A DNA stretch of 64,000 nt from a virus (taxonomy: Duplodnaviria > Heunggongvirae > Uroviricota > Caudoviricetes): IMG/VR virus record IMGVR_UViG_3300032093_014924. One strand, written 5' to 3'. The notes beneath the pieces were generated by a model, which had not been told where the DNA came from, did not search any database, and was given only the letters and a program-made list of their open reading frames with translations. A program made the position numbers and the translations under genes. Shown piece after piece: positions 5,994 to 51,349 of the stretch (position 1 is its first letter; each line of letters opens with the position of its first letter).

Positions 5994-6003
5994 TTTTTTT
6001 TAT

Positions 6004-6429: not shown

Positions 6430-6488
6430 ATTTTTTTAGTTACTTAATGCAAAGATACATAATATTTGCAAGCAAAACAAGTTTTTTT

Positions 6489-6698: not shown

Positions 6699-6933
6699 TT
6701 AATTTATTCAAATGAAAAATAGATGCCTTAATCAAATCATCTTTATCGTGATAACTATTATCATCAGCCAATTTAATTAACATACATAGTGTTTCACAAA
6801 CGCATGTTATGTCGTCCAAAATAATTTTTTTAGCTTCTTCTTTAGTTTCTGGTTGTTTGAAATCATCTGGTTTACCTATTTTTACAGGTATATCCCTTTC
6901 AGTGTCAATATCAATTATAAGTGTGTTTTTCAT
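6682..6933 (-). CDS. hypothetical protein
   Basis: 83-aa ORF. Promoter-motif variant GTAACAAATGTACTAAA directly upstream. Confidence 0.4.
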   Translation of the reverse strand: MKNTLIIDIDTERDIPVKIGKPDDFKQPETKEEAKKIILDDITCVCETLCMLIKLADDNSYHDKDDLIKASIFHLNKLNEKNV

Positions 6934-19405: not shown

Positions 19406-19432
19406 AATTATAAAACAAAATTTATTTTTTAG

Positions 19433-19578
19433 CAGTCAGGACAGGATTCGAACCTGTATGTAAACCTTTTATCAACTTACCTTTACCAAAGCGTTTCTGC
19501 GCAACCTACTTTGGATTTATGTTGGTAATTTACTCGTAAGTATAATTGCGTAGCGTCTACCAATTTCGCCACCTGACT
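19433..19578 (-). tRNA. long tRNA-like gene, type-II (Leu-like) acceptor/D/T arms with a roughly 60-nt extra insertion
   Basis: Minus strand reads AGTCAGG-TG-GCGA-AATTGGTAGA-CGC ... ACAGG-TTCGAAT-CCTGT-CCTGACT-G. The perfect 7-bp acceptor stem, canonical D and T arms and a GCGCAGAAACGC variable-arm-like hairpin support a tRNA. Total length is about 146 nt. Confidence 0.5.
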
Positions 19579-22324: not shown

Positions 22325-22546
22325 TTAAAGATTCGATATATCTTTTAATATGTTTTGATTGTTTTTAATGAAACCATAAAACATCTGTTGCATCAATGGT
22401 GGTATTAAATTACCATCAACATACACAACATAATTTAATACGCCAATCTCTTGACCTTTCTTTAAAGTTATTTCATTAGTTAATGAAACATCTTCTGTTA
22501 ATTTGTACCTTACATTATTTATTTCCATATTATTTCTTAGCATCAT
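22325..22546 (-). CDS. hypothetical protein
   Basis: 73-aa ORF. Confidence 0.3.
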   Translation of the reverse strand: MMLRNNMEINNVRYKLTEDVSLTNEITLKKGQEIGVLNYVVYVDGNLIPPLMQQMFYGFIKNNQNILKDISNL

Positions 22547-23801
22547 ATTCTGGGTTCATATATTTACAAGATAAGTCATTACTAAAATGTGTCCTAATAA
22601 CAACACCTTCAATAACTCTACCTTGTTCTTTTTCTTTTGCAATAATTGAATCACAAAACTGACATAATTCTTCATATGAAGATGGTTTAACCAATTCTGG
22701 TTTTGTGTATTCCAAACCTAAAGCGACACATACAGTTTCAAGATTAAATTCACTTGAATAGTTTAATCTTTTTGAAAAACCTTCAGATAAATTATCAATA
22801 CCAAACATTCTAAGTGTTTGTTTTTTATTAGAATCTGGATTATATTTGTTACCAGAACCCTTTAACCCCTGACCATAAATTTCACCTCTAAATGCTAATT
22901 CCAAACCATGTGTTTTACAATATTCTAATCCTTTATCAATTAAACCACTTGAATACGCTAAATCAACCCAAGAATCTTTTACATCAACAAAAATTGGGGT
23001 TAATGAATCAAGTTCTTCATTTGTTCTGAAATCATTTAACGCATCACAATACCAACCCTTTTCTTTCGTTTCTGGGTTAATATATTTATGATAATTGTTG
23101 TTATTAGCATCAAAATAATTTGTAATCGCTTTTTGTTCAAGTTTTTTCTCTAAACTTCTTGAACACACACCAACCTTATATTCACCATCAATAAGTTTAA
23201 AATATGTCGTGTGTGATGAACCATCATGTTTAATTGTAACACCAAACACTGTGTTACCATCACATAACTTCATAACCCTTGATTTAAGGTTTGAATAATT
23301 TTCTTCATCCGTTTTATATAAGAAAGATGGGAAATCACCAGCAATCAAACCAGAACCAGCTGTTTCAGGTTCTTCATATTTTGTAATACCAAGAATTTCT
23401 GTTATATCATCAGTATCTGAATCTTTACCAATAAATGAATCAACTTCACTCTTTGGTAATAAAACACCAAAAGAATAGATAGGGTCTGTTGATTCAGCAA
23501 ATGAGAAATTAAATTTAATTGCCCTAACCCTATTGTTTTTACCTAACCTGCTTTTCTTAGGGTCATTATCTGGCATTGTAAAACTATTGAATAATCCAAT
23601 GTCTGATAAGCAATAATCAGGTTGAATATAACAGGCTTTTGACCCTATTTCATATAACCCTTTTTGTGCAATGACATTGTACCCACATTCATCACCATTC
23701 TTAAACTTAAAGTTGATTACTTGGATACTATTAGCCTCTTCACCATTCTTGTATACAGGAATGATTTTATTTACTTCAACAATTTCAACTGGTTTTATCA
23801 T
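22530..23801 (-). CDS. ATP-dependent nucleic-acid ligase (KxDG nucleotidyltransferase; RNA-ligase-like)
   Basis: GVTIKHDGSSHTTYF = motif I KxDG of the covalent nucleotidyltransferase superfamily. 423 aa. Confidence 0.5.
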   Translation of the reverse strand: MIKPVEIVEVNKIIPVYKNGEEANSIQVINFKFKNGDECGYNVIAQKGLYEIGSKACYIQPDYCLSDIGLFNSFTMPDNDPKKSRLGKNNRVRAIKFNFSFAESTDPIYSFGVLLPKSEVDSFIGKDSDTDDITEILGITKYEEPETAGSGLIAGDFPSFLYKTDEENYSNLKSRVMKLCDGNTVFGVTIKHDGSSHTTYFKLIDGEYKVGVCSRSLEKKLEQKAITNYFDANNNNYHKYINPETKEKGWYCDALNDFRTNEELDSLTPIFVDVKDSWVDLAYSSGLIDKGLEYCKTHGLELAFRGEIYGQGLKGSGNKYNPDSNKKQTLRMFGIDNLSEGFSKRLNYSSEFNLETVCVALGLEYTKPELVKPSSYEELCQFCDSIIAKEKEQGRVIEGVVIRTHFSNDLSCKYMNPEYDAKK

Positions 23802-23947: not shown

Positions 23948-25299
23948 CATAAGTCTTTAGCTTATGTGATATAAGCACTACAAAAATACAAATAAATAAA
24001 CAAATAAACAAATAAATATTTTTTTTTCTTAAAATATGTCTTTTTTAATATTATCATATATTTATCATATATAGAGTTAATCTGATAAATAATGTTAAAA
24101 TCATATAAATATAAACTTAAACCAACTAATGAACAAATTGTTTTATTGAATAAACACTTTGGTTCAATTAGGTTTATATATAATTATTTTTTAAATGAAA
24201 GAAAACATGAATATGAAACAAACAAAAACTCAATTAATTATTATGATAACGCTAAATCATTAACTGAATTAAAAAAACAAGATAATTATTCATGGTTAAA
24301 AGAAATTAATTCACAATCATTACAGGATTCATTAAAAAATTTAGAAACAGCTTATAAGAATTTTTTTAGATTCAAAAAAGGTTTTCCTAAATTTAAATCT
24401 AAACACGATAAAAATAGTTTTACAATACCTCAATTTGTTAAATTAAATAAAAATGAATTATCTATACCTAAATTTAAAGACCCTATTAAAGTCATTATAG
24501 ATAGAAAATTTAATGGTTTAATTAAACAATGTACTATTTCAAAAACACCAACAAATGAATATTTTGTATCTATTTTGGTTGAAACTGAACATAATAAATT
24601 ACCAAAAACTAACAAATCTGTTGGTATTGATTTAGGTATTAAAGAGTTTGTTATAACATCTGATGGTTATAAATATAAAAATAATAGATACACAAAAACA
24701 TACGCTAAAAAACTTAAAGAACATCAACAACATTTAAGCAGAAAAATAAAAGGTAGTAACAGATATAATAAACAAAAATTAAAAGTGGCCACTATTCATA
24801 AGAAGATAACCAATTCTAGAATAGATAATCTACATAAAATATCCACAGATTTAATTAAAAAATATGATTTAATTGTATTGGAAGATTTAAATATTAAGGG
24901 TATGGTTAAAAATCATAAATTATCTAAACATATTTTAGATGTTTCATGGGGAAAATTTGTAACAATGTTACGTTATAAATCTGAATGGAATGATAAAAAA
25001 ATAGTTAACATAGATAGGTTTTTTCCTAGTAGTAAAACATGTAATTGTTGTGGTTATATTAATCAAAATTTAAAATTAAATATTAGAGAATGGGTTTGCC
25101 CATCATGTAATACTAAATTAGATAGAGATTTAAACGCAAGCATAAATATCCTTAAAGAAGGAAATAAGATATTATCGTCAGGAACTGACGATTACAGACG
25201 TGGAGATGAAATAAGACCAACATCCGTTGGCACAATCGGTGAAACGTCTAAAATTCTTAACAATATTGTTAAGAAACCCATTGGTCTTTAGCCAATGGG
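23948..25299 (+). mobile_element. IS200/IS605-family (IS1341-like) TnpB-only insertion element
   Basis: The only large plus-strand gene in its neighbourhood. Flanked by two related hairpins with an identical TCTTTAG loop: CATAAG-TCTTTAG-CTTATG at 23948-23966 and CCCATTGG-TCTTTAG-CCAATGGG at 25277-25299. Confidence 0.6.
24092..25291 (+). CDS. tnpB: TnpB (OrfB_IS605) RNA-guided endonuclease-family transposase accessory protein
   Basis: N-terminal YKYKLKPTNEQ, central RuvC-like region, and C-terminal CNCCGY...CPSCNTKLDRDLNASINI zinc ribbon + RuvC-III signature. Confidence 0.85.
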   Translation: MLKSYKYKLKPTNEQIVLLNKHFGSIRFIYNYFLNERKHEYETNKNSINYYDNAKSLTELKKQDNYSWLKEINSQSLQDSLKNLETAYKNFFRFKKGFPKFKSKHDKNSFTIPQFVKLNKNELSIPKFKDPIKVIIDRKFNGLIKQCTISKTPTNEYFVSILVETEHNKLPKTNKSVGIDLGIKEFVITSDGYKYKNNRYTKTYAKKLKEHQQHLSRKIKGSNRYNKQKLKVATIHKKITNSRIDNLHKISTDLIKKYDLIVLEDLNIKGMVKNHKLSKHILDVSWGKFVTMLRYKSEWNDKKIVNIDRFFPSSKTCNCCGYINQNLKLNIREWVCPSCNTKLDRDLNASINILKEGNKILSSGTDDYRRGDEIRPTSVGTIGETSKILNNIVKKPIGL

Positions 25300-25533
25300 T
25301 AGTTCATCTATAGTGTTTATTAAAGCCATATGTGGAATATGTCTACCAATCAACACAGACCATATTAATTCACGTTTTTGATTTAAATCCCAAACAAAAT
25401 CACGCTGTAAGTTCTTACCTCTTGTTTCTAAGAAAACATCCCAATCAATATTTAATTGTTTAAAGTACTTTACGCTTGAGCAAGCTTCTTCAACTTTTAG
25501 ACCAATATTTCTAAGTTCTTTTATAGTTTTCAT
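25288..25533 (-). CDS. hypothetical protein
   Basis: 81-aa ORF. Its 3' end runs into the right-end hairpin of the IS. Confidence 0.35.
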   Translation of the reverse strand: MKTIKELRNIGLKVEEACSSVKYFKQLNIDWDVFLETRGKNLQRDFVWDLNQKRELIWSVLIGRHIPHMALINTIDELPIG

Positions 25534-26654
25534 TTTTTTAAATGTTCGTATAACCTCTTGTTATCAAAGTCTTTAAGGTATTCTTCTGGTGATGGTGTTT
25601 TACCGTCAATCAAAGAGAAAAACATATTTGAAAATAACATTAAATTATTCTCTGAACAAACTTTAAATACATTTGTGGCGTAATTTTTACGTTCTTCTTT
25701 TGTGTTGTTCTTAGGTTTAAATTCATATAAAACATACCAATAATGATTTAACGCACGTATTAACCCATAATACTTTTCTCTTAGTTCAAGTATCTCATTT
25801 TCACGTTCTTTGAATGTTGATATGAATTCTTCAACTTCATTATTCTTTATTATCCCCAATATATTATAAAAAGATAATTTATCTTTTAAATGGTGAACCA
25901 AAACATATTCAGGATTCTTTAATTTAACTCTGTTAAAATCATTATCAACAATAACATACCCCTCTTCTGAAAATGGCATATTTTCAAAAGTCTTAACCAA
26001 AGAATCTATGTTCTTATTTAGGTCATATTCAGTCACCACAGGGATATTTATTTGTTTTGATACTTCCATTACATCATTGTAAGATAATTCGTTTAAGGTC
26101 TTTAAATCCCTTATTGTTAATAATGTTAGTGAAGATTCAGAATGTGGTTTAACAACAATATTATAAGGTGTCATTAATTCAAAAACATAACTAAAACCTT
26201 TTGTTAATTTATTTTCAGTTAAACCATATTTTGAAGCTGTATTCCAAAACAGTTGATTAAATGTTAAATCTAACATTCCATTAACATTCCCTTCACCTTC
26301 AGCAGTTCCTGTTGTTGCAGCAAACCACTTATCTTTATTCCAATCGTAGTGTAAATTAATTAAAGAACCATCACACTTCTCAAGGATTCTTGCGGTATTC
26401 CAATTAATTGTATGAGCATTAGTTTCACTATGATTAAAGAATTTTTTAAAAGCCATACCAATAACTTTCCATGTGTCTAATTCGAGAATTAATCCACGAC
26501 ATTCTTGAACTTCTTCCAAAGCCATTATTACTGGTGATGATAATTGGTCATACTTTAATATGACTTTATCATAGTATAACTTATGTTTTAACTCTAAATC
26601 AGATACGGTTTTTTCTAACCCATCTCTATTTAACTTTTCAACTATTTTTAACAT
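25530..26654 (-). CDS. rnlA: RNA ligase 1 family (T4 RnlA-like)
   Basis: RILEKCDGSLINL = KxDGSL motif I, as in T4 Rnl1 (KEDGSL). 374 aa. Confidence 0.6.
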   Translation of the reverse strand: MLKIVEKLNRDGLEKTVSDLELKHKLYYDKVILKYDQLSSPVIMALEEVQECRGLILELDTWKVIGMAFKKFFNHSETNAHTINWNTARILEKCDGSLINLHYDWNKDKWFAATTGTAEGEGNVNGMLDLTFNQLFWNTASKYGLTENKLTKGFSYVFELMTPYNIVVKPHSESSLTLLTIRDLKTLNELSYNDVMEVSKQINIPVVTEYDLNKNIDSLVKTFENMPFSEEGYVIVDNDFNRVKLKNPEYVLVHHLKDKLSFYNILGIIKNNEVEEFISTFKERENEILELREKYYGLIRALNHYWYVLYEFKPKNNTKEERKNYATNVFKVCSENNLMLFSNMFFSLIDGKTPSPEEYLKDFDNKRLYEHLKK

Positions 26655-36268: not shown

Positions 36269-37183
36269 TTATTTAATTGTTTTTTTAAAGTTATCTGTTT
36301 CTAACGATGTTATTTTATTACCAAGTTCTTGACTAGGTTTAAGATTAAATTTATCCATTACTTCTTGTGAATTAACAGACAATTCAAAATCTATAAAAGC
36401 ATCAACTAACTTTTTATCTAAATTATTTATTTGACCGAATTTTTTTATTTGTTCATCATTCAATGTTATATTTTTTTGCATCTTTTTTAATGCTACGGCT
36501 GTATCAATACTTATATTTAAAAAACTAAGTAAAAATTGAATGTTTCTTATCTCATCAATAGTGTATCTTAATTCATTTAATTTGTTACCAATGTTTTTAG
36601 GGTTATTTAATTTTAATAAAGTTGATATTGTTATGATATAATCATCTGTTAAGTTTTTGAAATTCTTATTAATATTAAGTTTAGGAAAAATCCAATCAAA
36701 TAAATTATATCTATCTATTAAAGATAGAAAGAAAGAAACATTTTTAGCTGATTTAATTCCTTTAATAAATTCATCTTTTACTCTCTCAGCAGATATACCT
36801 TCTAAACTAGCATCTTTTTGTAATGCTTCATCTGTTTGTTGGTCTATATCACTATCTAATCTGGCTGAGAATCTTAGAACTCTTAAAATCCTAAGTCTAT
36901 CTTCATTGAATCTATCTTCTGGTTTACCAACGGTTCTAATCACACCATTTTTTATATCTTCAATACCACCAACAAGGTCAACAATTTCTTTATTTTTAAT
37001 ATCGTAAAATAAAGCATTTATTGTTATATCTCTTCTTAGCACATCTTGATATATATCTGTGAATTCGACTGAATCTGGTCTTCTTTTATCAGCTAAAGTT
37101 TTTTCATAATCTTCAAATTCTTTTTTAAAGAATTCTTTAGCTATTTGTTCCCAATTTTCCATTTTAATTATTTTAATTTCCAT
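36269..37183 (-). CDS. CCA-adding tRNA nucleotidyltransferase, C-terminal portion (neck/body), separate ORF
   Basis: ADKRRPDSVEFTDIYQDVLRRDITINALFYD = the conserved RRD(F/I)TINA motif that follows the head domain. Begins with its own ATG overlapping the end of the GIY-YIG gene. Confidence 0.7.
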   Translation of the reverse strand: MEIKIIKMENWEQIAKEFFKKEFEDYEKTLADKRRPDSVEFTDIYQDVLRRDITINALFYDIKNKEIVDLVGGIEDIKNGVIRTVGKPEDRFNEDRLRILRVLRFSARLDSDIDQQTDEALQKDASLEGISAERVKDEFIKGIKSAKNVSFFLSLIDRYNLFDWIFPKLNINKNFKNLTDDYIITISTLLKLNNPKNIGNKLNELRYTIDEIRNIQFLLSFLNISIDTAVALKKMQKNITLNDEQIKKFGQINNLDKKLVDAFIDFELSVNSQEVMDKFNLKPSQELGNKITSLETDNFKKTIK

Positions 37184-37875
37184 TTATAACCACCACACTT
37201 ATTTCTATTACCATTTATTACCGACCAAATATTGCCTTGACTCAACCCTAATTCTTTTGCTGCTGCTGTTGCACTAACCCATTCTTTAATTAATTCACTA
37301 TCTTTAGATAATTGTAATACTGGTGTTGCGTTCCAAGACAAAGTACCTTTTTTGGTTTCTGATATTTGTTTTTTAGTCTCTTCGCTGTGTTTATTACCAG
37401 TATTTCTACCAGGTTTACCAATTAATGATTGACTTATTTTTTCTCTTGTTATATTACTAACCTCCCTATTTTTATTGTTTTGACTGATTTTATTCCTATA
37501 CTCTAACGACCTTATGTGACCAGAAACACCATCGCCTCCATTGGTAAGGTTGGTTAATGGACCATTTTTTAAATCATTCCTACCAATAACTAATATTAAT
37601 TTTTTTTCTAACTCGAAAGCATCAACTTCAAATATATTTTCACTAATTTTTAAAATTATTGGTTTTAAACCAATATTTATTATTTTATTAATTTTTCTAA
37701 TTTTATATGTGTTATTATCACACTTCATCCTATTAGGGTTTAAGTGTTCTAAGCATCTTTTGTAACATCCCTTTCCAACATAAAATGGTTCATATTCAAA
37801 TTTATAATCACCATATGTAAATTCACCTTTTTTTCTTGGGTCTAGGTAAACATAGACATAATATTTTGATTCCAT
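37168..37875 (-). CDS. GIY-YIG homing endonuclease inserted within the CCA-enzyme gene
   Basis: YVYVYLDPRKKGEF...FYVGKGCYKRCLEHLN = GIY-YIG module, with C-terminal NUMOD-like basic repeats. Located between the two halves of the CCA enzyme. Confidence 0.75.
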   Translation of the reverse strand: MESKYYVYVYLDPRKKGEFTYGDYKFEYEPFYVGKGCYKRCLEHLNPNRMKCDNNTYKIRKINKIINIGLKPIILKISENIFEVDAFELEKKLILVIGRNDLKNGPLTNLTNGGDGVSGHIRSLEYRNKISQNNKNREVSNITREKISQSLIGKPGRNTGNKHSEETKKQISETKKGTLSWNATPVLQLSKDSELIKEWVSATAAAKELGLSQGNIWSVINGNRNKCGGYKWKLK

Positions 37876-37919
37876 GACATTCTTTTTATTATAAATATCA
37901 TGGATTAATCTAAAAGTCG

Positions 37920-39485
37920 CTATTTCATTAATTTAGTTAAAAATTTTTCGTAACTACCATTATTTAAACGTTTTAAATAATCTTTAAACCCTTCTAAATC
38001 ATAACCTTTATATTGGTCTATTCTGAATGTGGCTATTTCATATTCATCACTATCTGTTATAACATTAATGACACCAAATGCTTTTCCTGTTGCTATTGTT
38101 TTATAACCGTTTTCTTGTAATATGTTTTCAATATCATCTGGTTTAGCATTTGTTGCTAAATCATAATCTTTTGGTTCTTTATTTAGTAAAACATCCCTTA
38201 CTGAACCACCAACAAGATATAAATCATAACCATTCTTAACAAAAATATCTTTAATATCTATTATGTCCTTTGGTAAGTTAATATCATATTTAATTCTTAT
38301 TTCAGATGAAGTATTTAATTTATTTTCGTTTTCGGTAAAAAATTGTTTATATTCATCATCTTCTTTCACGTTATTTAATAAACGTTCTTCTTCATCATTT
38401 AATGGTCTATTTATGTTTTTTAAAATCAATTCTTGATGTTTTTCATCATACTTCCAAAAATCTTCTAAAATATCTTCTAATATAGTTACATCATTTACTT
38501 TAATGTTTTCATCATAAATTAATTTAATATAACCATCATCAATCATTTTTTTAACCATTTTATAATGTGGTAATTTTTCTAATAAACCATTCTTAAATTT
38601 AATTGGTAATGAATTATAATAAACTTTTTTTAAGTTTTCATCTAACTCATCTAATTGATAAGGTTCAAAATAATATTCAAAATTTTTTATATAAATTATT
38701 TTTTCATTATTTTTTAATTTATTAAAAAAATCAATACTTAATTTATCACCAGCTAAAGCATCTGAACGCATATTTGGGAAATTAGTTATCACATCACGTT
38801 TTATTTTACAAAATAGTTCTGGGTTTTTAACTTCTACTGGATTAGACGATAGTTTAGATAAATCATATATAACAGACCCGTGTAATGTATTATCATACCC
38901 ATCTATACCGCTAACATTAACACCATTAAAACCATTGTACTCCATTATTCTTGTTGACATGGATGCTAAATTGGTTTTGTTCTTCATGTCATTTGCGGCT
39001 TCTTTAACCATATTTATATATTCACGATATTTTGGAATATTTAAACCTAGGTATTGTGCATTATTTATTATTTTTAAATAAATAATTTTGAATTTGTTAT
39101 CCATTTCAAATTTGCTATCATAAACTCTAACAACTAAATAAAAACTTTCATTTATTAGTTTTAATGTTTTAAATAACATTTCAGCATGGTCTGGTGATTT
39201 AACCCTAAATAAATTTTTATAAATATCAAAATCAACACGATAAATATTATCTTTTATTTTAGTTAATTCTTTTTTTGAGTTATCGGAATCATCAAAATTT
39301 TCACAACTATAAGTAGAAAAATAAAGACCAGAACCAAAATGCCCAGTTCCACGACCTTGCATACGAAATAAATTATCTGAACCATATGGTCTTATATTTT
39401 CTACATTTTCTATATCACCTTTATGGTAATTAAATTCCGTTTCGTTTAATAAGTTTCTTAATTTGAATTTAATATAGTTTTTCAT
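37920..39485 (-). CDS. Unknown about 400-aa N-terminal domain fused to the CCA-adding enzyme head domain (N-terminal half of the split nucleotidyltransferase)
   Basis: C-terminal 90 aa YDLYLVGGSVRDVLLNKEPKDYDLATNAKPDD...GKAFGVINV...EYEIATFRIDQY = class-II polymerase-beta head domain (GGxVRD, DxD, ATFR). The ORF stops immediately after. Confidence 0.7.
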   Translation of the reverse strand: MKNYIKFKLRNLLNETEFNYHKGDIENVENIRPYGSDNLFRMQGRGTGHFGSGLYFSTYSCENFDDSDNSKKELTKIKDNIYRVDFDIYKNLFRVKSPDHAEMLFKTLKLINESFYLVVRVYDSKFEMDNKFKIIYLKIINNAQYLGLNIPKYREYINMVKEAANDMKNKTNLASMSTRIMEYNGFNGVNVSGIDGYDNTLHGSVIYDLSKLSSNPVEVKNPELFCKIKRDVITNFPNMRSDALAGDKLSIDFFNKLKNNEKIIYIKNFEYYFEPYQLDELDENLKKVYYNSLPIKFKNGLLEKLPHYKMVKKMIDDGYIKLIYDENIKVNDVTILEDILEDFWKYDEKHQELILKNINRPLNDEEERLLNNVKEDDEYKQFFTENENKLNTSSEIRIKYDINLPKDIIDIKDIFVKNGYDLYLVGGSVRDVLLNKEPKDYDLATNAKPDDIENILQENGYKTIATGKAFGVINVITDSDEYEIATFRIDQYKGYDLEGFKDYLKRLNNGSYEKFLTKLMK

Positions 39486-41178: not shown

Positions 41179-41256
41179 TAATCAGGACAGGATTCGAACC
41201 TGTAATAGACGCTCCTTAGAGTCCGCTATCTTGGCAACCAATTCCGCCACCTGACT
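41179..41256 (-). tRNA. tRNA-like gene (paralog of the Leu-like family; the anticodon arm does not fold canonically)
   Basis: AGTCAGG-TG-GCGGAATTGGTTGCC ... ACAGG-TTCGAAT-CCTGT-CCTGATT-A. It shares the acceptor and T arm with the other family members, but I could not find a 5-bp anticodon stem. Confidence 0.35.
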
Positions 41257-41386: not shown

Positions 41387-41489
41387 GTTGTTAGGACAGG
41401 ATTCGAACCTGTACGCAGTATCTTAATTACAGGCTCTTTTCACGATACTGCCGAGCCATGCGTGCGTCTACCAATTCCGCCACCTAACT
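41387..41489 (-). tRNA. long type-II tRNA-like gene (Leu-like), about 103 nt
   Basis: AGTTAGG-TG-GCGG-AATTGGTAGA-CGC ... ACAGG-TTCGAAT-CCTGT-CCTAACA-A. The middle 50 nt contains a 9-bp stem CGCAGTATC/GATACTGCG. Confidence 0.45.
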
Positions 41490-42203: not shown

Positions 42204-42224
42204 ATAATACAAATATACTAACCT
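42204..42224 (-). promoter_or_regulatory. conserved upstream motif instance driving the tRNA-cluster leader
   Basis: ataatacaaatatactaacc, with no ATG-initiated gene downstream. About 360-nt leader, then tRNA-Leu(UAA). Confidence 0.5.
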
Positions 42225-42911: not shown

Positions 42912-42964
42912 AATATTTAATTTATTTATAAATATGCTGAAATAAAAAAAACCTTACAAAATAA

Positions 42965-43317
42965 TTGTAAGGTTTTTAGTGGAGCGAGTCGGAGTTGCAC
43001 CAACGTGTTGGTTATTCTTCAATACCTTTCTACATGTTTATAATGGTTTTCTAACCATTCAAAATACATCAAATTTGTTAAGTTCTCTGATTAGAAACTA
43101 ATGGACTACCATTATGTTGTAGAAAATACTACAATTAAGTAAGTTATTACTATCAGCGATATCAGGCTACCGCAAGCTCTCCAGCGAAGCTACATGTAAC
43201 TTCGTTAAGGAAATTTTCAGAAACAACTAAATCGTTGCCATTTGTTTGTTTTGATAGGGTATTTAAGTGTTTCCATCTAACACTACATGCTTAATACTTA
43301 CGACTATAACCAGTCGA
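42965..43317 (-). ncRNA. ssrA: tmRNA (SsrA)
   Basis: Minus-strand 5' end GGGGCGAUAUUAGAAUCGACUGG... is near-identical in pattern to the bacterial SsrA 5' end GGGGCUGAUUCUGGAUUCGACGGG. The 3' end ...GGUGCAACUCCGACUCGCUCCA is the T-arm-like + acceptor strand pairing with GGGGCGA. A candidate internal tag ORF ...FAGELAVA-UGA ends with a typical hydrophobic (A/L/V)A tag. Promoter motif about 14-19 nt upstream. Confidence 0.8.
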
Positions 43318-43330
43318 TTCTAATATCGCC

Positions 43331-43350
43331 CCATTGTTTTAATAATTATT
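43331..43350 (-). promoter_or_regulatory. conserved upstream motif instance upstream of tmRNA
   Basis: ttattacaaatatactaaaa about 14 nt 5' of the GGGG start of ssrA. Confidence 0.5.
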
Positions 43351-43399
43351 ACAAATATACTAAAAGATACAAATAAAAACAAATATTATTTAATAAATA

Positions 43400-43924
43400 T
43401 TATGTGTATTTATCAATAATAGTTTTAAACATGTAATAATATGTGCTAATAGTTGTTTTAGCACCGTGAGTACTAACATTATTAAATTCATTTTTAATAA
43501 CATCAGAAATATTGTTTATGGTTGATGCTTTTTCTATAAATGAAAAACCCTCCCTTTCTTGAAATATGATTAACGCTTTTCTAACGCTGTACGTGCCGTA
43601 AAAAGAAAACGGCATATAGTTTGATTTTATCCAATCCCACATGTCATTAGGGTTGTTTGTGTTTGGTGCTTCTTGATGACAATCTTTACATAGAAGAACA
43701 TAGTTGTCAGGTGAATCACTACCACCTAAACTATGTGGAACTATATGACATCTTTCTAATGAAGGGGTTTTATGTGATTTTCTAAATCTGTCATCACCAC
43801 AATTCCAACAGTGTGTGTGTGCATCGGCCCAATCGAAATTTAATTCTAGTTCACTTATATTACTATTTTTTATCCAGTAATCAGCAATATGTTTTATAGT
43901 TGTTTTACAATATCTTGTCGCCAT
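43400..43924 (-). CDS. HNH homing endonuclease
   Basis: HCWNCGDD...CHIVPHSLGGSDSPDNYVLLCKDCHQ = HNH motif with zinc-binding cysteines. Confidence 0.75.
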   Translation of the reverse strand: MATRYCKTTIKHIADYWIKNSNISELELNFDWADAHTHCWNCGDDRFRKSHKTPSLERCHIVPHSLGGSDSPDNYVLLCKDCHQEAPNTNNPNDMWDWIKSNYMPFSFYGTYSVRKALIIFQEREGFSFIEKASTINNISDVIKNEFNNVSTHGAKTTISTYYYMFKTIIDKYT

Positions 43925-43933
43925 TATTATTAA

Positions 43934-44650
43934 TTATTTTTTTCTACTTATTACCGAATCAATAATACCATATTTAAGTGCTTCATCAGCATTCAACCAA
44001 AGGTCCCTGTCAGCATCTTTCATAACTTGTTTTGCAGTTTTGTTTGTGTACTCACCAAGCAACCCAAATAATATTTCATTATATTTCTCAGTTTCAGCAA
44101 TTGTTAATCGCATGTCTTGAATAGTACCCCCCATTGAAGAAGAAACTTGGTGTAGCATAACTCTACTGAAACTTAAACTATACCTTTTACCTTTGGTTCC
44201 AGCACCTAATAATACACTACCCATACTAGCGGCCATACCTGTGTTTATAGTGACGATATCAGAAGATATATAACCAATAACATCAACAATTGATAAACCA
44301 CTTTTAACGCTACCACCAGGTGTATCAATATGTAGAGTAATATCTTTTGTTTCCATATTATCAAGAAACATTAATTGTGCTTGAACAACCGTGCTCATCC
44401 TATCGTTAACTGGTCCAGCTAACCATATAATCCTATCCATCATCATTCTATCAAACACTGACATTAGTGTTGCTCTGAATTCTCTTTCTTCCAAAATCAT
44501 CGGTGATAAAGAACCAAATACATTTACATTTGAATAAATGTTTTCTTGCAGTTTTTCCCAATAATATAGTTGCATACTGCTTATGCCCATGTGTTTTGTT
44601 GCATAAGATTTGAATTCTTCATGCATACCAGTGTCTACTAAATTTTCCAT
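43934..44650 (-). CDS. clpP: ATP-dependent Clp protease proteolytic subunit ClpP
   Basis: DRIIWLAGPVND...TPGGSV...NTGMAASMGSVLLGAG...MLHQ gives a full-length match to the ClpP fold, with a catalytic Ser (GMAASMGS) and His (LHQ). Confidence 0.85.
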   Translation of the reverse strand: MENLVDTGMHEEFKSYATKHMGISSMQLYYWEKLQENIYSNVNVFGSLSPMILEEREFRATLMSVFDRMMMDRIIWLAGPVNDRMSTVVQAQLMFLDNMETKDITLHIDTPGGSVKSGLSIVDVIGYISSDIVTINTGMAASMGSVLLGAGTKGKRYSLSFSRVMLHQVSSSMGGTIQDMRLTIAETEKYNEILFGLLGEYTNKTAKQVMKDADRDLWLNADEALKYGIIDSVISRKK

Positions 44651-44657
44651 TTTTTTT

Positions 44658-44909
44658 TTAATTGTTTAAACTTCTAACATAAATTGGTGTATTTTCACCT
44701 AGCCAAGCACCTAAAATATTAAAATGATAATATTCTTCGGCTTCATCATATGACATATCATATTTATCGATTAATATTGATAACATTTTTTCTACATCAT
44801 ATGTTACAACTGGGTTTAAATTAATTCTTTCCGCAATACCTATTATTGCATCATCAAACCCATCACACATTAGTGCTTCTGGATTAATCAATTCTATCTG
44901 TTCTTTCAT
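44658..44909 (-). CDS. hypothetical protein
   Basis: 83-aa ORF. Confidence 0.35.
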   Translation of the reverse strand: MKEQIELINPEALMCDGFDDAIIGIAERINLNPVVTYDVEKMLSILIDKYDMSYDEAEEYYHFNILGAWLGENTPIYVRSLNN

Positions 44910-44912
44910 ATT

Positions 44913-45104
44913 TTATTTAATAACTTCAATTTTAATTATTCTATCATCAGAAGAAAAATTTAACGGACTATCGTTAAAATTATCTGATATAAATCTATAT
45001 GCTGCTGTTGGATTACAATTAAATTCGTCATGAAATGTTTTCTCGTCAATCATTTCTGTACAATCAAACTCAACTGTTATTCTAAAACCAATATTCTTTT
45101 CCAT
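44913..45104 (-). CDS. hypothetical protein
   Basis: 63-aa ORF. Confidence 0.3.
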   Translation of the reverse strand: MEKNIGFRITVEFDCTEMIDEKTFHDEFNCNPTAAYRFISDNFNDSPLNFSSDDRIIKIEVIK

Positions 45105-45106
45105 GA

Positions 45107-45643
45107 TTAATTATTAAAGCATTTCCTACATATAGGTATATAAGTTTTTTTATCACCGATATACATCAAATCAGTATTATTAACCATTCTTTTAGAATAG
45201 TTTGCCAAATTTTTCTTACAGACCATACAAATTGAATTAATCTTATCAACTTTATCAGCAATTGAAAATAATTTAGACATTGTTATAAACGGATTTCTTT
45301 CATAATCCAAATCTAAACCACTTATTATTATTCTTTTACCTTCATCAGCCATTCTTAATACAATCTTGTATAAATCTTCATCAAAGAATTGAGCTTCATC
45401 TATTGCAATAACTTCATAATCTTTACTCTTATTGTAGATATCATCAATGTTATCGACAACAACAGCTTGTAATTCACCACATAAATCATGTGTTGCTATT
45501 GCATTATTTTCCTTTTCGTTTCTACTATCAATGTTAGGTTTGAAAACAATGAAACTTGTTTCAGAAATTATAACTCTTTTAATTCTTCTAATCAACTCTT
45601 CTGTTTTACCTGAAAACATAGGGCCACAAATAACCTCAATCAC
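45107..45643 (-). CDS. tdk: Thymidine kinase
   Basis: MIEVICGPMFSGKTEELIRR (P-loop) ... IAIDEAQFF ... C-terminal Cys-pair zinc ribbon (CMVC...CRKC). Confidence 0.85.
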   Translation of the reverse strand: MIEVICGPMFSGKTEELIRRIKRVIISETSFIVFKPNIDSRNEKENNAIATHDLCGELQAVVVDNIDDIYNKSKDYEVIAIDEAQFFDEDLYKIVLRMADEGKRIIISGLDLDYERNPFITMSKLFSIADKVDKINSICMVCKKNLANYSKRMVNNTDLMYIGDKKTYIPICRKCFNN

Positions 45644-45645
45644 TA

Positions 45646-46086
45646 TTACCTCCCTGTTCTACTTAAAGATTCGTCTTCAGATTGGTTTTCAGCATCGTAA
45701 AGACTTTTAATTGTTTCTCTAACATTTTCAATAACTTCAAATGTATGTTTTCTTAAGATACCGCTATGAGCCAAAAAGTCTGGTTCAGTAATTAATACTT
45801 TATCTTTATCCATGTCATAAGCGATATATGCTACAGCTTCTTCAGCAACAATCATTTTTTGCACATCGGTTAATTGTTCAAAAATGTTTTGATTAATAAT
45901 AATGATAACATCATCACCAGTTCTGTACTTTAACAAATCATTAGCCCTCATAACTTTAAAAATCTTTTTTGATTTGTTATCTGCTAATAACTTAATGTTT
46001 ACACTTGGTGGTAATGTTGATTGGTTAACAACCACTTCATCAAATAAACTTTCAATGTCCTCATAAGGTTCTTCAAATCTTGCCAT
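45646..46086 (-). CDS. hypothetical protein
   Basis: 146-aa ORF with the promoter motif upstream. Confidence 0.4.
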   Translation of the reverse strand: MARFEEPYEDIESLFDEVVVNQSTLPPSVNIKLLADNKSKKIFKVMRANDLLKYRTGDDVIIIINQNIFEQLTDVQKMIVAEEAVAYIAYDMDKDKVLITEPDFLAHSGILRKHTFEVIENVRETIKSLYDAENQSEDESLSRTGR

Positions 46087-46123
46087 AATTACTTTTTTTT
46101 TAACTTGTTATTTATAATACAAA

Positions 46124-46146
46124 TATACTAATAATAATCGAACTAA
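46124..46146 (-). promoter_or_regulatory. conserved upstream motif instance
   Basis: ataatacaaatatactaataata upstream of 45646-46086. Confidence 0.5.
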
Positions 46147-46157
46147 ACAAAAAAATG

Positions 46158-46258
46158 TTTTAATTTCGTGATATTTTTATTCTAAAATACTGTCGTAATT
46201 AAATACATATCAATTAGTTATAAAAATGTATTGCGTATAGCCTGTTGTTATGTGCAAG
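46158..46258. repeat. about 100-bp dispersed repeat, copy 2
   Basis: Near-identical to 28078-28175. Confidence 0.7.
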
Positions 46259-46259
46259 G

Positions 46260-46544
46260 CTACAGTTCAATTTCAATCAAAGATGTTTCGACAAGTTCAA
46301 ACCAGCATTGATTATATGAACCGCTACCATCATCTTCCCAATTTCTTTTAAAGCCAAGCATATACCATTCTTCTGCCTTTAAATCTTTAGTATCAATTTC
46401 ATTAACCGATTCCCAAAGTTTATCAAAATCTTTTTTTACCAATGTTTCATTATCTCCAATTGAAGCAACTCTCAAATCAAATTCTTCAAAAGAAATTGAG
46501 CCATCAACTACGCTACTGTGTGTATAAATTTCAACGTAAATCAT
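46260..46544 (-). CDS. hypothetical protein on a G+C-rich island
   Basis: 94-aa ORF with distinctly higher G+C codon usage. Confidence 0.4.
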   Translation of the reverse strand: MIYVEIYTHSSVVDGSISFEEFDLRVASIGDNETLVKKDFDKLWESVNEIDTKDLKAEEWYMLGFKRNWEDDGSGSYNQCWFELVETSLIEIEL

Positions 46545-46714
46545 TTCATTTCAAATTAAATTTAGTGCTGATAAACCGCCCAGCACATAACATCGGTTTG
46601 GCAAAATTGGGGTTGACTTTTTTCTATCATTTTTTGTAGTTATTTAAACATTAGTAATTTTTATCTGTTTTTGTAGGTATTATCACACACTTCACCAAAC
46701 TGTAGTCATTAGGT

Positions 46715-46897
46715 TTAATCATTAATTTGTTTTGAATCATCTATTGGTTTCACATCTGGAAGTTCGTTTATCCCCTGTTTTCCAATTGACTCAATAACAT
46801 TCAACATTGGATGGTCTTTATCCATTTCAGTAAGTCCATCTAATAGACCACTCTCTTCCCATTTTTTGATAATTTCTTCTTTTCGTTTATTTTCCAT
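46715..46897 (-). CDS. hypothetical protein
   Basis: 60-aa ORF, G+C-rich. Confidence 0.3.
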   Translation of the reverse strand: MENKRKEEIIKKWEESGLLDGLTEMDKDHPMLNVIESIGKQGINELPDVKPIDDSKQIND

Positions 46898-46985
46898 ATT
46901 TATATTTTTTACAAAGGTAAAACAAATTAATGACTAAACCTAACAAATGATAAACAACATTAAAACGATTGTTTATCATCGGACG

Positions 46986-47324
46986 TTATAAGCCATTTTG
47001 ACGAGCTACTACAACCATTCCGACCTCTGGATGATATTGGATAGCACATTTATATTCAGCAGCTAATTGATAAAACTTTTCAAGAAACTCCTTATGCTTA
47101 CCTTCTGGAGTGTTGTGGTTAAGTTCAATCCTTTGCCCTTCTAAACTTGCTTTTCTTAACCCTATTTCAATTCCGTGTTTAATTCCTCTATCCCAAGTTT
47201 CTCTCATTTCAACTTTAGAGTATTTATGAGTTCCAAAAAGCAAACTTAATCCGCTTTCTTTTTCTTGAAAAGATGTATCTCCTTTCATTTCTTCTCTGAA
47301 AATGTGTTCAATTCGTAAGTCCAT
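46986..47324 (-). CDS. hypothetical protein (G+C-rich island)
   Basis: 112-aa ORF. Confidence 0.4.
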   Translation of the reverse strand: MDLRIEHIFREEMKGDTSFQEKESGLSLLFGTHKYSKVEMRETWDRGIKHGIEIGLRKASLEGQRIELNHNTPEGKHKEFLEKFYQLAAEYKCAIQYHPEVGMVVVARQNGL

Positions 47325-47478
47325 TTATTTTTGATTTGTGAAGAAAAACGGCTTATAACAGCACATTGCCAAAAGTGGCGGTTTAGTGCTAATATCAACT
47401 GTTGTGCTTCGGTTTAACATTTGTGTTTATATCAAGTTTAGTGCTTCGATTTCGCCACCTTCGGCAATCTGCGGAACG

Positions 47479-47736
47479 TTATAGGTAATGCTTGACGAAC
47501 CTATCTACTTTTGCTTGGCATTCTGCTTTACCTAAAAATTTTTGATACCATACCATTTGTTTAGTCTTTGTTTCAATTACAGCAATATCCATAATTAACC
47601 CTTCATCACTTCCATATTCTAATGATTTAATTGCATCTTCAATAGTATTATGTTCATTATAATCAGTAACACCGAATCTATCAAAAATTGAAACAAAAGC
47701 ACTACCTATAACAACAGGTTGTTTATTACTACTCAT
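47479..47736 (-). CDS. hypothetical protein
   Basis: 85-aa ORF. Confidence 0.35.
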   Translation of the reverse strand: MSSNKQPVVIGSAFVSIFDRFGVTDYNEHNTIEDAIKSLEYGSDEGLIMDIAVIETKTKQMVWYQKFLGKAECQAKVDRFVKHYL

Positions 47737-47744
47737 TTTTTTAG

Positions 47745-48737
47745 TTATTCGGTTATATTGTTTTCAATAATTCTTAATTTATTTATCACTTCTTTTTGTT
47801 CTTCTGTTATGCTTTTTGGTATTGATATATCAGCAATAACAAATAAATCACCACGTGAATTGCTTTTAAATTTATTTAATCCTTTTTGTGGTATTCTAAA
47901 CATTTTATTTAATTCAGTATGTTCTGGTATGTTAATTCTTATTTTACCACCATCAATCGTTTCTATATCTATTTTATCACCTAATACTAATTGGTCATAT
48001 CTTAGCTTAACATTTAACTTTAAATCATCACCAGACCTAACATACGTGTCATGTGGTAATTCTTTAATTCTGACGATTAGATTACCATTTATACCATTCC
48101 TAACAGCATTACCTCTACCATTTATATTAAAACCCATATTTTCAAAAACACCTTTTGGTATTTCTAATTCTATTTCGTCTGTTATCTTTTTAGTACCACT
48201 ACCATTACAATCACCACAAACATCCTCATAAACAATACCATCACCTTCACAAACATTACAAGTTGTTGCTTGTTGGAAATAACCAAATGGTGTTTGTGTT
48301 ACATTAATAATAACACCATCACCATTACATTTAGGGCAAGTCTTAGAATTTGTACCACCATGACCATTACATGTTTTACAACTATCCAATCTATCAAATC
48401 TATATTTGTTTTTTACACCATTATGTATCTCGTTAAGATTTAATTTAATTTCTAATAAAACATCACTACCAATCTTTTGTGGTTTCGCAAAATCATTAAA
48501 ATCAAATATTGAACGTCTTTTTTCTGTACCAAATCTATCATAATTTGACCTTTTTTCATCATCAGATAATACACCATAAGCCTCAGATATGTCTTTAAAT
48601 TTTTCTTCAGCTTCTTTGTTGTCAGGATTCTTATCTGGATGATATTGCTTTGCCAACGTTCTATAGGCTTTTTTAATCTCATCCTTTGTTGCATCTTTAG
48701 CAACGTTTAAAATAGCATAATAATCTTTCTTTGACAT
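47745..48737 (-). CDS. dnaJ: DnaJ (Hsp40) chaperone
   Basis: J domain DYYAILNV...[16 protein letters not shown]. Four CxxCxGxG zinc-finger repeats. C-terminal substrate-binding domains. Confidence 0.85.
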
Positions 48738-49918: not shown

Positions 49919-51349
49919 TTACAAACTTATTTTTGAATATCTTTCTGAGTTAACAATATCTAACATTATTTTTTCTGGTGAATAGTCAACATCACCTAAA
50001 ATATTTTTAAGTAATGTTGGTGAAAAACCACTAACTAAACAAACACCACTCTTATCGTATTTTACTGGGAAATTATTATTAGCACCATTTAAATTCCAGT
50101 AAATAACACTAGGCATTTTATAACCAGCATCATTATACATCCTTTCAATCATCTCTTGTGCAGATGTATTATATTTAACACCTTGATTAAACTGCATATC
50201 TGACAATATCACAAGTGTATCTGGCATTTCATCAGCTGAAACTTTGTTTTTAACAGCTGAATTTAATACTAAATTGAAAACACTCTCTAAATTGGTTGAC
50301 ATACCCCAATGAGAATTGCTCATTTGGATAAACCTTTCACTTAAAGTACCTTTAAGTATTTCTAATGTCGGTGATGATGAAAATGTAACAAAACCATCTT
50401 TAAATAACCCTTGATTTCTTTCAGAAATGTATATACCTAAAGATATAGCAACATCTAAACATGTTATTGTTTTACTACTACCAGCAGGACATGACATAGA
50501 ACCAGAAACATCTACGATAGGTAATAGTCTTTTTTTATTACCTTCCATATAATTAGGTAATGAATTCCATTGAACATCCGCACCATCTTTATTACCATAA
50601 CGCATATTTTTAATAATATCGTATGGATATACTGCACCAGCTTTAATAGTGGTTTTACCTGTCTTAACATCATTAATAAAAGATAAAAATCTTTCTTTAT
50701 CATGTCTAATAAATACTGACATGTAATCACTCATGGCTTTTGATGGTATTTTATTATATTCAATAGAACCCCATTTATTAGAACACATAAGTTGTTCAAC
50801 AGTATTTGACAAGTCACTTAGTAATATTCTATATTCTTTAGGTGACAATCCTAAACTTTTTCTAATTTGATTAGCCCAACGTTTTTTATCTTTATTATTA
50901 ACATTAGGTCTTGGTAACCATTTTGCACATAACCCGTCTTTGGCTTTTAAACCCTCTCTAATGAGCGTTAATACGTTATCCTTTGCCTTGGTATCAATCA
51001 AAGGTAACATGTCATCCCATCGCCCATATTCGCTAATTAAATGGATATTATTAATTAACGTATTTAAATCGTTATCAGCAAGGTAAGTAATAACATCTTT
51101 AAAGATTTGACGTTCACCTGCACCTTCTCTTACATCACGACTCCAAAATAAAATTTTAAGTGCTATTAATTTATTCTCATGGTATGCTTTAATGAAGTTA
51201 TTCATCAACGTTTGCTTATTGTGTTTACCTCTTAACGCACCAATACTGAAAAACAAATCAACACAATGATTGCTTGTCGTACTATTAGCCAACATACCAT
51301 TTGTTGTTAGCGTATCATTACTTGTCATACCGTTAAATAAGTTACTCAT
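49919..51349 (-). CDS. vWA-domain protein, possibly Ro60/TROVE-like
   Basis: C-terminal LPIVDVSGSMS...TFSS...SDM = von Willebrand A MIDAS motif (DxSxS...T...D). The N-terminal about 260-aa helical domain is of uncertain identity. Confidence 0.4.
   Translation of the reverse strand: MSNLFNGMTSNDTLTTNGMLANSTTSNHCVDLFFSIGALRGKHNKQTLMNNFIKAYHENKLIALKILFWSRDVREGAGERQIFKDVITYLADNDLNTLINNIHLISEYGRWDDMLPLIDTKAKDNVLTLIREGLKAKDGLCAKWLPRPNVNNKDKKRWANQIRKSLGLSPKEYRILLSDLSNTVEQLMCSNKWGSIEYNKIPSKAMSDYMSVFIRHDKERFLSFINDVKTGKTTIKAGAVYPYDIIKNMRYGNKDGADVQWNSLPNYMEGNKKRLLPIVDVSGSMSCPAGSSKTITCLDVAISLGIYISERNQGLFKDGFVTFSSSPTLEILKGTLSERFIQMSNSHWGMSTNLESVFNLVLNSAVKNKVSADEMPDTLVILSDMQFNQGVKYNTSAQEMIERMYNDAGYKMPSVIYWNLNGANNNFPVKYDKSGVCLVSGFSPTLLKNILGDVDYSPEKIMLDIVNSERYSKISL

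Follow-up and report, generated by a model that had tools for sequence, protein, structure and literature searches.

Phage-encoded transfer-messenger RNA (tmRNA) genes, ssrA, have been described before. Full-length copies are present in Bxz1-like mycobacteriophages and Bacillus phage G (PMC4131195), tmRNAs were found with ARAGORN in huge phages (PMC7162821), and ssrA has also been reported for Mar_Mega_1 (bioRxiv 10.1101/2021.07.26.453748) and Sinorhizobium phage AP-J-162 (PMC11242549). Here we investigated a tmRNA gene in a 64,000-nucleotide (nt) stretch of DNA, hereafter the window, from the Caudoviricetes record IMGVR_UViG_3300032093_014924 of IMG/VR. We consider the element on its minus strand at 42977..43332 quite likely to be a functional tmRNA gene that the phage encodes, with a structure of Bacteroidota type.

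Like the reported phage tmRNAs, it is a full-length ssrA in a large phage genome, beside tRNAs and translation-related genes. What is new here is an extended, conserved tag and a fixed place next to a phage ClpP; phage tmRNAs as such were already known. The first-pass annotation of this DNA had called a virus carrying both a tagging RNA and the tag-directed protease unusual, which overstated the case, as phage-encoded tmRNAs are already documented (PMC4131195; PMC7162821).

Identification of the tmRNA gene

42977..43332, minus strand: tmRNA (ssrA) gene, identified by Rfam RF00023, a family profile and covariation across 59 homologues

Read on the minus strand, the gene begins with GGGGCGAUAUUAGAAUCGACUGG at 43332 and ends with ...GGUGCAACUCCGACUCGCUCCA-CUA at 42977. 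Rfam model RF00023 matched 42977..43332 with 48.5 bits (gathering score 47, E = 4e-16, model positions 1-374), a small margin over the cut-off, and the posterior probability of the alignment was high for the two end segments that form the tRNA-like domain and low between them. The family sequence profile scored the window tmRNA at 262 bits, and its fold was better than those of 100 dinucleotide-preserving shuffles (z = -3.05). These results agree with the first-pass annotation, which had proposed a phage-encoded tmRNA and named Infernal with Rfam as a check: the model matched end to end above its cut-off of 47, and the neighbours and relatives of the gene are phage-like. The end sequences that it quoted were exact, and the acceptor GGGGCGA/UCGCUCC with its G3:U pair is present; its interval, 42965-43317, overlapped 341 of the 356 nt, although it was displaced by 12-15 nt towards lower positions. 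Maturation would probably remove CUA (42979-42977) and add CCA to an RNA that extends from 43332 to the discriminator A at 42980.

We searched IMG/VR with the ClpP encoded upstream of the gene, obtained 594 relatives and used the best 80 loci (61-76% identity). The sequence profile found a full-length tmRNA homologue in 71 of them, in each case 80-1974 nt downstream of clpP and on the same strand, which strengthens the link to ClpP drawn in the first-pass annotation. These loci yielded 59 unique tmRNA sequences. The same RNA with the same frame in 59 distinct versions points, far beyond chance, to a real tmRNA gene.

Conservation of the RNA structure

43326..43332, minus strand: 5' strand of the acceptor stem, GGGGCGA; G3 pairs with U, the identity pair of alanyl-tRNA synthetase (AlaRS), in 59 of 59 sequences
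42981..43004, minus strand: T-arm GUUGG-UGCAACU-CCGAC, with a non-canonical T-loop, and acceptor 3' strand UCGCUCC
43285..43312, minus strand: 5' strand of helix P2, UGGUUAU ... GCAUGU, with its partner at 43009-43037; supported by covariation
43253..43284, minus strand: pseudoknot 1 (PK1), just 5' of the resume codon, with stem 1 AGUGUU/AACACU and stem 2 GAUGG/CUAUC
43162..43239, minus strand: tag reading frame, from translation
43156..43173, minus strand: helix-5-like hairpin GCGGUA/UAUCGC with the stop codon in its loop, read directly from the sequence
43042..43151, minus strand: region standing in for pseudoknots PK2-PK4, with three hairpins, one H-type pseudoknot and a final hairpin

The 59 distinct homologues were aligned, and the pairings of the window-derived structure were counted on that alignment. 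The covariation score was 0.347, compared with 0.153 for shuffles (0 of 500 reached it) and 0.08-0.12 when partners were slid by 1-3 columns. Such covariation argues strongly for selection on the RNA structure. In the acceptor stem 89% of cells were paired, pairs 5-7 showed compensatory changes, and the discriminator is A. The T-stem was 98.6% paired with changes on both sides in five of five pairs. P2a was 94% paired, six of its seven pairs having changed on both sides, and the GCAUGU/ACAUGU segment of P2 was 99% paired. PK1 also changed on both sides, with stem 1 paired in 97% and stem 2 in 93%. The third pair of the helix-5-like hairpin is G-C, U-A or A-U among relatives, and this stop-codon hairpin, helix 8 of the scored structure, was 75% paired in the global alignment.

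Downstream of the tag, the three hairpins are AGUAA/UUACU, UUGUAG/CUACAA and AAUGG/CCAUU, the final hairpin is AAUGGUU/AACCAUU, and the pseudoknot combines AGUU/AACU with AUCAGA/UUUGAU. The first hairpin 3' of the tag was 93% paired family-wide; the remaining elements reached 33-78% in a region that aligns poorly. Because family-wide pairing of the downstream pseudoknot was just 33-42% in the global alignment, we claim it for the nearest subclade only, where compensatory differences are confined: stem 2 reads UCUUGAU/AUCAAGA, UCAUGAU/AUCAUGA or UCUUAGU/AUUGAGA in the nearest relatives (AUCAGA/UUUGAU in the window), and stem 1 reads AGGG/CCUU, CGG/CCG or, as in the window, AGUU/AACU. The PK2-PK4 elements of tmRNAs are variable or dispensable. 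Of the architecture expected by the first-pass annotation, the tRNA-like domain, PK1 and the tag were borne out, while PK2-PK4 proved reduced and supported in part. The comparative evidence thus establishes an architecture of tRNA-like domain, P2, PK1, tag and helix 5.

The hairpins at 43100-43151 on the minus strand are three consecutive near-repeats of one motif, which in relatives reads NNUGGUARUCCANN, e.g. GGUGGUAAUCCACC, GGUGGUAAUCCACU and AAUGGUAGUCCAUU. One possibility is a binding site present in several copies, another a module that was duplicated and replaces PK2/PK3.

The tag reading frame

The tag frame has no start codon. It opens at the resume codon GGC (43239-43237) and runs for 25 codons, GNDLVVSENFLNEVTCSFAGELAVA, to a UGA stop that lies in the loop of GCGGUA/UAUCGC; a further hairpin, GAAGUUA/UAGCUUC, lies inside the frame. 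The ending SFAGELAVA-UGA read in the first-pass annotation is present as the end of this 25-residue sequence.

The open frame was intact in all 59 homologues, with 25 codons in 40 and 26 codons in 19. The resume codon was GAC in 43, GGC in 12, GGA in three and GCA in one, and the stop codon was TAA in 56, TGA in two and TAG in one. The tag consensus is (D/G)-N-D-F-I-V-S-E-N-F-L-(D/N)-E ... G-E-(L/V)-A-(V/L/F)-A, and the variable middle of the tag is the site of the covarying hairpin. Conserved residues are specified by synonymous codons, namely TCA, TCT, TCC or TCG at Ser7, AAT or AAC at Asn9, and GCA, GCT or GCG at Ala-3. Synonymous variation at conserved residues is the pattern of a translated sequence and points to selection at the protein level.

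An alternative genetic code that reads through UGA was considered and rejected, as TGA ends 10 of the 59 long minus-strand open reading frames (ORFs) that have a stop. ORFs are long and dense under code 11, and TGA is an ordinary stop in the window genome.

Association of ssrA with clpP

43934..44650, minus strand: ClpP proteolytic subunit, 238 amino acids, with an N-terminal extension of ~47 residues; Pfam CLP_protease (PF00574), 1.1e-54
43400..43924, minus strand: HNH endonuclease gene; Pfam HNH (PF01844), 7e-08
44658-44909, minus strand: 83-amino-acid protein, conserved upstream neighbour; tblastn, 67 of 80 loci
45646-46086, minus strand: putative phage metallopeptidase; tblastn, 74 of 80 loci
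47745-48737, minus strand: DnaJ; tblastn, 68 of 80 loci

The end of the ClpP gene and the 5' end of the tmRNA downstream of it are 601 nt apart, in agreement with the ~600 bp of the first-pass annotation, and the HNH gene lies between them. ClpP matched NCBIfam NF011091 over its full length with 225.7 bits, under the equivalog cut-off of 361, and scored 71 bits with a head-maturation protease model, under the cut-off of 120. Its GMAASMG, HQ and DRD motifs align with the catalytic Ser/His/Asp motifs of 1y7o. Like known ClpP, it thus shows a full-length model match and an aligned triad; it differs in its N-terminal extension, in being phage-encoded and in lying below the equivalog cut-off. By these motif and model matches, we assign it as a true ClpP, not a prohead protease.

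The spacer between clpP and ssrA is down to 41-136 nt in many loci. One of the nine profile-negative loci ends 1.4 kb past clpP, and in seven IMG/VR loci without a profile match Rfam also found no tmRNA. The HNH gene occupies inserted DNA of 567 nt (~43365-43932) that is absent from relative L008, in which 41 nt separate the clpP stop from ssrA, and no HNH homologue was found in any of the 80 related loci. The adjacency to HNH and clpP noted in the first-pass annotation is therefore true, with HNH an incidental and non-conserved part of it; the gene is a lineage-specific mobile insertion outside the system.

The conserved block also contains ClpP in 80, ssrA in 71 and an 80-amino-acid protein in 53 of the 80 loci, and lineage-specific genes, including a thymidine kinase, are interspersed within 44658..48737 on the minus strand. 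The 83-amino-acid protein was considered as an adaptor candidate: its model had a predicted local distance difference test (pLDDT) score of 83.8 with no significant Foldseek match in the PDB (best E 0.13), and it matched no family of known function. On the 3' side of the tmRNA follow, all on the minus strand, an 85-amino-acid membrane protein, tRNA-Leu, a sigma-70-like factor and a CCA-adding-type enzyme. Neighbouring genes match phage families. The window as a whole, with a G+C content of 23-30%, encodes a DNA transfer protein of phrog_1745, two RNA ligases and the Ro/TROVE-like phrog_850.

In one relative, L090 (IMGVR_UViG_3300014204_000168; equal to L217/L218), clpP, smpB and ssrA follow one another at 5001-6786, and the same cassette is also present on the 248-kb contig 3300035208_002098. 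The SmpB is full-length, with 145 amino acids and 44% identity to Bacillus subtilis SmpB over 140 residues. From its gene content, this arrangement appears to be a complete trans-translation cassette on a phage contig. Other ORFs between clpP and ssrA in relatives encode membrane proteins or proteins of unknown function, not SmpB.

Relative L040 carries at 5836-5879 a 44-nt second tmRNA 5' fragment with a GTTCTTTAA leader, directly upstream of its full tmRNA at 5901-6262. The fragment looks like a remnant of allele replacement by recombination.

Among deposited phages, the best ClpP relatives belong to Lak phages and, at 57.6% identity, to phages of 630-640 kb described by Al-Shayeb et al. (2020). 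No tmRNA was found within 4 kb of the more distant ClpP of the huge phages LR745206, LR756502 and LR756504 or of the phages Lak-C1, Lak-B5 and XaC1, and blastn with the window tmRNA or a canonical relative gave no similarity in 50,697 deposited phage records. An exact 20-mer from the 5' end of the tmRNA had no match in IMG/VR. An identical ClpP was present on 24 contigs of JGI, ENA and Logan assemblies, of which some measure 0.2-1 Mb, and an identical 83-amino-acid neighbour protein on a contig of 293.5 kb, indicating that the source phage genome is roughly 300 kb or more.

A megablast of 16 kb gave two short intergenic matches only. These pieces, ~46541-46596 and 46886-46977, are 93-95% identical to LR745206 and LR756500, and the flanking genes are dissimilar at the DNA level. 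The piece at 46886-46977 contains a hairpin (GATGATAAACAA...TTGTTTATCATT) followed by TTTG ... TACCTTTG, a conserved terminator/promoter unit.

Comparison with bacterial tmRNAs

The P2/PK1 signature GTAAGCATGNAGTG(9-16)CACTTNAA matched at least 120 bacterial contigs, and among the first 80 listed the organism titles were almost all Bacteroidota. The tags that ARAGORN reported from signature-matched contigs were mostly of 9-10 residues, e.g. GENNYALAA, GNTQYAMAA and GEENYALAA. Against the phage-family profile, bacterial tmRNAs reached at best 17-57 bits, compared with 147-307 for family members.

With Bacteroidota SsrA the phage RNA shares a one-piece form, the G3:U acceptor, the GCAUG/CAUGU segment of P2, the PK1 signature GUAAGCAUGNAGUG...CACUUNAA, a resume codon at about position 94-96 that is often Gly, and a hydrophobic tag ending in Ala. 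These shared features assign the window RNA to the Bacteroidota type. It differs from Bacteroidota SsrA in being phage-encoded next to clpP, in a PK2-PK4 region cut to hairpins and one pseudoknot, and in a family resume codon that is mostly GAC (Asp). The tag differs as well: at 25-26 residues in the family it is ~2.5 times as long as the 9-10-residue Bacteroidota tags and ends in A-[VLF]-A, A-V-A in the window, rather than [LM]-A-A, so that it probably has a different recognition partner.

Transcription signals

43352..43360, minus strand: promoter-like -7 box GTATATTTG, 20 nt upstream of the mature 5' end
42947..42977, minus strand: intrinsic terminator with a 13-bp hairpin and U-run, directly after the tmRNA 3' end, from a terminator scan

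The Bacteroidota promoter has a -7 box of the form TAnnTTTG, which GTATATTTG fits, a further pointer to Bacteroidota. The box occurs 12 times in the window compared with 1.67 expected, at 539, 8837, 10103, 15706, 28036, 35796, 42210, 43352, 46120, 52436, 54084 and 63882, all on the minus (coding) strand. All but one of the 12 copies fall between genes, in most cases 4-38 nt ahead of a start codon, and four stand exactly 4 nt before ATG. The motif resembles a principal -7 promoter element of the phage, of Bacteroidota type, and some mRNAs would be leaderless or near-leaderless. Relatives have a matching box, (C/T)ATATTT(A/G)T, equally far upstream, and this match, together with the recurrence on the coding strand, gives indirect support to the first-pass proposal that the tmRNA has its own promoter. 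The terminator scan of the region found three sites compared with 0.3 expected, and the tmRNA terminator is kept in L008.

We also compared the 80 nt upstream of each tmRNA in loci L011-L090. A conserved leader, GTTCTTTAAnnTAT, directly precedes G1 in most family members and is missing from the window, and many members have an inverted repeat, ATATGTGGnC ... GnCCACATAT, over the -7-like box, which is likewise absent from the window. The leader and the inverted repeat could be processing or regulatory elements.

CCA addition and other RNA-related genes

36269..39485, minus strand: CCA-adding-type nucleotidyltransferase in two ORFs; NCBIfam PRK13299

The 3' CCA is encoded by five of the 59 family members and missing from the other 54, including the window copy (CUA); the three tRNAs of the window are also without an encoded CCA. 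As CCA is not encoded, it must be added after transcription. The first-pass annotation had connected the CUA end with a phage CCA-adding enzyme, which holds and extends to the family, with the qualification that the enzyme gene is split by a GIY-YIG ORF. The ORF at 37920-39485 (521 amino acids) carries only the head domain (PRK13299 positions 18-93), at its C-terminus after ~400 residues of unassigned function, and the ORF at 36269-37183 (304 amino acids) covers PRK13299 positions 87-374. Between them lies the GIY-YIG endonuclease ORF (37168-37875), which matches TIGR01453 (group I intron endonuclease). No group I intron was detected with Rfam, and the CCA-adding gene is either split or intron-interrupted.

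Several other RNA-related elements were observed in the window. The tRNA-like gene at 19432-19578 on the minus strand has 50 nt inserted into its anticodon loop (Rfam tRNA, 34.7 bits), and ARAGORN in intron mode calls it tRNA-Asp with anticodon ATC; it may be an intron-containing or otherwise unusual tRNA. Two more tRNA-like elements, at 41179-41256 and 41388-41489 on the minus strand, have a common 5' end, AGUNAGGUGGCGGAAUUGG, a canonical T-arm and aberrant or expanded anticodon regions; they scored 28.4 and 32.5 bits in Rfam, and ARAGORN called neither. Both are in an ORF-free stretch of ~1 kb with tRNA-Leu, downstream of the promoter box at 42210-42218. A TnpB/IS605 OrfB-type gene (HTH_OrfB_IS605, OrfB_IS605, Cas12f1-like TNB), one of the rare plus-strand genes, lies at 24092-25291 between the RNA ligase genes at 22530-23801 and 25530-26654, which are on the minus strand. 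A Ro/TROVE-like RNA-binding protein (DUF2828/DUF7788; phrog_850) is encoded at 49919-51349 on the minus strand. Together, the Ro/TROVE-like protein, RNA ligases, tRNAs, CCA enzyme and tmRNA look like a toolkit for RNA repair and translation maintenance.

Alternative explanations

Several observations weigh against reading the gene as a functional tmRNA coupled to the phage ClpP. ARAGORN, the second program named in the first-pass annotation, reported three tRNAs and no tmRNA in the window. The window copy has the weakest canonical signal in its family, barely above the Rfam cut-off, and the L008 variant falls under the cut-off of RF00023. Its T-loop, UGCAACU, has G where U55 is nearly universal, and its D-loop has AG instead of GG. 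The PK2-PK4 region is backed by covariation only in part, and the A-V-A end of the tag differs from the L-A-A class read by ClpX. Neither SmpB (queries: Escherichia coli and B. subtilis SmpB and the L090 SmpB) nor a ClpX-type unfoldase was found in the 64-kb window. Finally, neither a conserved clpP-ssrA cassette nor an extended tag was found in the open-access literature searched, subscription journals being outside its scope.

The one AAA+ protein checked as a ClpX candidate (4701-5993) was rejected, being Cdc48/FtsH-like. The searches for SmpB and ClpX covered the 64-kb window of a genome of at least 293 kb, so SmpB could lie elsewhere.

Mycoplasmas, which lack ClpXP, have long tmRNA tags that are degraded by Lon. 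The alternative that survives best, which we nevertheless consider rather unlikely, is that the tmRNA is functional and its tag is not a ClpXP degron; the tag would be read by Lon, by the neighbouring putative metallopeptidase or by a phage adaptor, or would mark or sequester products, and the adjacency to ClpP would reflect a general proteostasis block. The tag of 25-26 residues ends in A-V-A, A-F-A or A-L-A and not L-A-A, and since A-V-A is unlike L-A-A, it is the adjacency of the genes that links the tag to ClpP. In length (~25-27 residues) and in a hydrophobic ...A-F-A or A-x-A end, the Lon-directed Mycoplasma tags are similar, although they belong to an unrelated lineage and RNA sequence, and the window has a ClpP gene adjacent. 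The conserved internal E-N-F-L suggests a second recognition element, the block also contains DnaJ and a metallopeptidase-like gene, and the window yielded no ClpX. Against this, the immediate upstream neighbour is ClpP, often at the short spacing given above, and not the metallopeptidase or DnaJ, and a hydrophobic end terminating in Ala still belongs to the general ssrA degron class. Coupling of the tag to ClpP is thus suggested by synteny.

Decay of the gene in the window lineage, where the mutated T-loop and D-loop would block folding, modification or SmpB binding, appears improbable. The window copy departs from the family consensus at five of 128 conserved columns, a count within the family range: A12 (D-loop), the stop codon, and U331, G335 and A337 (T-arm). 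With four of these five placed at the elbow of the tRNA-like domain, the ARAGORN miss is accounted for, and so is an Rfam score that is the lowest of the family (57-76.5 bits in the members sampled). These T-loop and D-loop deviations could impair handling by SmpB or EF-Tu. None of the single in-silico fixes (U55, a canonical T-loop, CCA or D-loop GG) restored ARAGORN detection; in chimeras, the window 5' part or T-arm each abolished detection of a detectable relative, and the window copy became detectable when both ends were swapped in from L017. ARAGORN detected 32 of the 71 family tmRNAs and therefore misses more than half of the family, window copy included.

Other observations speak against decay. 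U54, C56 and A58 are retained in the window T-loop, and the tag frame, PK1, P2, G3:U, promoter box and terminator are intact. The T-loop is UUCGAnn in 53 of the 59 members, with UGCAACU confined to the window and L008; the members with a non-GG D-loop are the window, L008, L056, L058 and L061, all with deviant T-loops, which suggests that D-loop and T-loop changed together by co-adaptation. The tmRNA and its flanks (496 nt) are 100% identical in eight independent metagenome contigs among the 24 with the identical ClpP. Between L008 and the window the tmRNA differs at two positions, C17U and a G-to-A change that turns tag Asp3 into Asn, a conservative replacement. On this evidence the window copy does not appear to be decaying. 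When metagenomes were scanned with a loose pattern for this unusual T-loop (GGTGCAACTCC...CTCCA), the 120 stretches obtained were unrelated, and none was a phage-type tmRNA.

We consider it very improbable that the RNA acts mainly as a competitor or decoy, titrating SmpB, AlaRS or ribosomes of the host and so blocking host trans-translation, with tagging of lesser importance. Such an inhibitory role has been proposed for an RNA of mycobacteriophage DS6A that comprises the tRNA-like domain only (PMC4131195). That precedent and a window in which no SmpB was found are in its favour; a decoy would need none of the conserved features found here, namely a tag frame intact in 59 of 59 sequences with coding-type substitutions, PK1, the stop-codon hairpin and, in one relative, smpB beside ssrA, and these argue against it. 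The bacterial ssrA gene is a common integration site, and many integrating elements carry its 3' part, yet an attachment-site remnant has a negligible chance of being the explanation here and was rejected, since the match to Rfam model positions 1-374 shows a complete gene, its divergent 25-codon tag resembles none of the bacterial tags retrieved, and its place next to clpP is conserved in 71 loci.

Proposed role and significance

The phage tmRNA gene is thus genuine and probably functional. The RNA would be transcribed from its own promoter (-7 box 43352-43360) and end at its own terminator (42947-42977), as the motifs suggest. RNase P would remove a short 5' leader, the 3' CUA and trailer would be trimmed, and CCA would be added by a host or phage enzyme; this processing and CCA-addition step is proposed because CCA is missing. 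AlaRS would then charge the RNA through the observed G3:U pair, and the RNA would enter stalled ribosomes with SmpB, presumably that of the host, as none was found in the window. Translation would resume at GGC (43239-43237) and append GNDLVVSENFLNEVTCSFAGELAVA, in line with the conservation of the frame.

By its genomic context, ssrA appears to be one half of a clpP-ssrA cassette within a DnaJ/metallopeptidase-like/ClpP block in a clade of large-genome uncultured phages. This context points to a likely role in ribosome rescue during infection, with tagged products passing to a Clp-type protease that contains the phage ClpP; most likely, the tmRNA would keep ribosome rescue running and route tagged products to that protease. 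A further and more tentative possibility is that this clade of large phages, infecting Bacteroidota, runs an orthogonal trans-translation system. It would use a phage-specific degron of 25-26 residues (E-N-F-L core, G-E-[LV]-A-x-A end) that host factors, tuned to host tags of 9-10 residues, would not read alike, and would send the products to a protease with the adjacent ClpP. The DnaJ/metallopeptidase-like/ClpP/ssrA(/smpB) cassette would then prevent ribosomes from being trapped on mRNAs and tRNAs damaged by host defences or host shut-off.

Phage tmRNAs have so far been listed in genome surveys, and surveys based on ARAGORN, the program commonly used to find tmRNAs, probably undercount them. 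The 59 distinct sequences obtained from the best 80 of 594 ClpP relatives are enough for comparative analysis. With ClpP directly upstream, the vague idea of a phage touching ribosome rescue becomes a testable partnership of tag and protease, and with a tag distinct from that of the presumed host phylum it can be asked whether phage and host tagging are distinguishable. The cassette and its distinct tag thus make the role of trans-translation in phages experimentally approachable.

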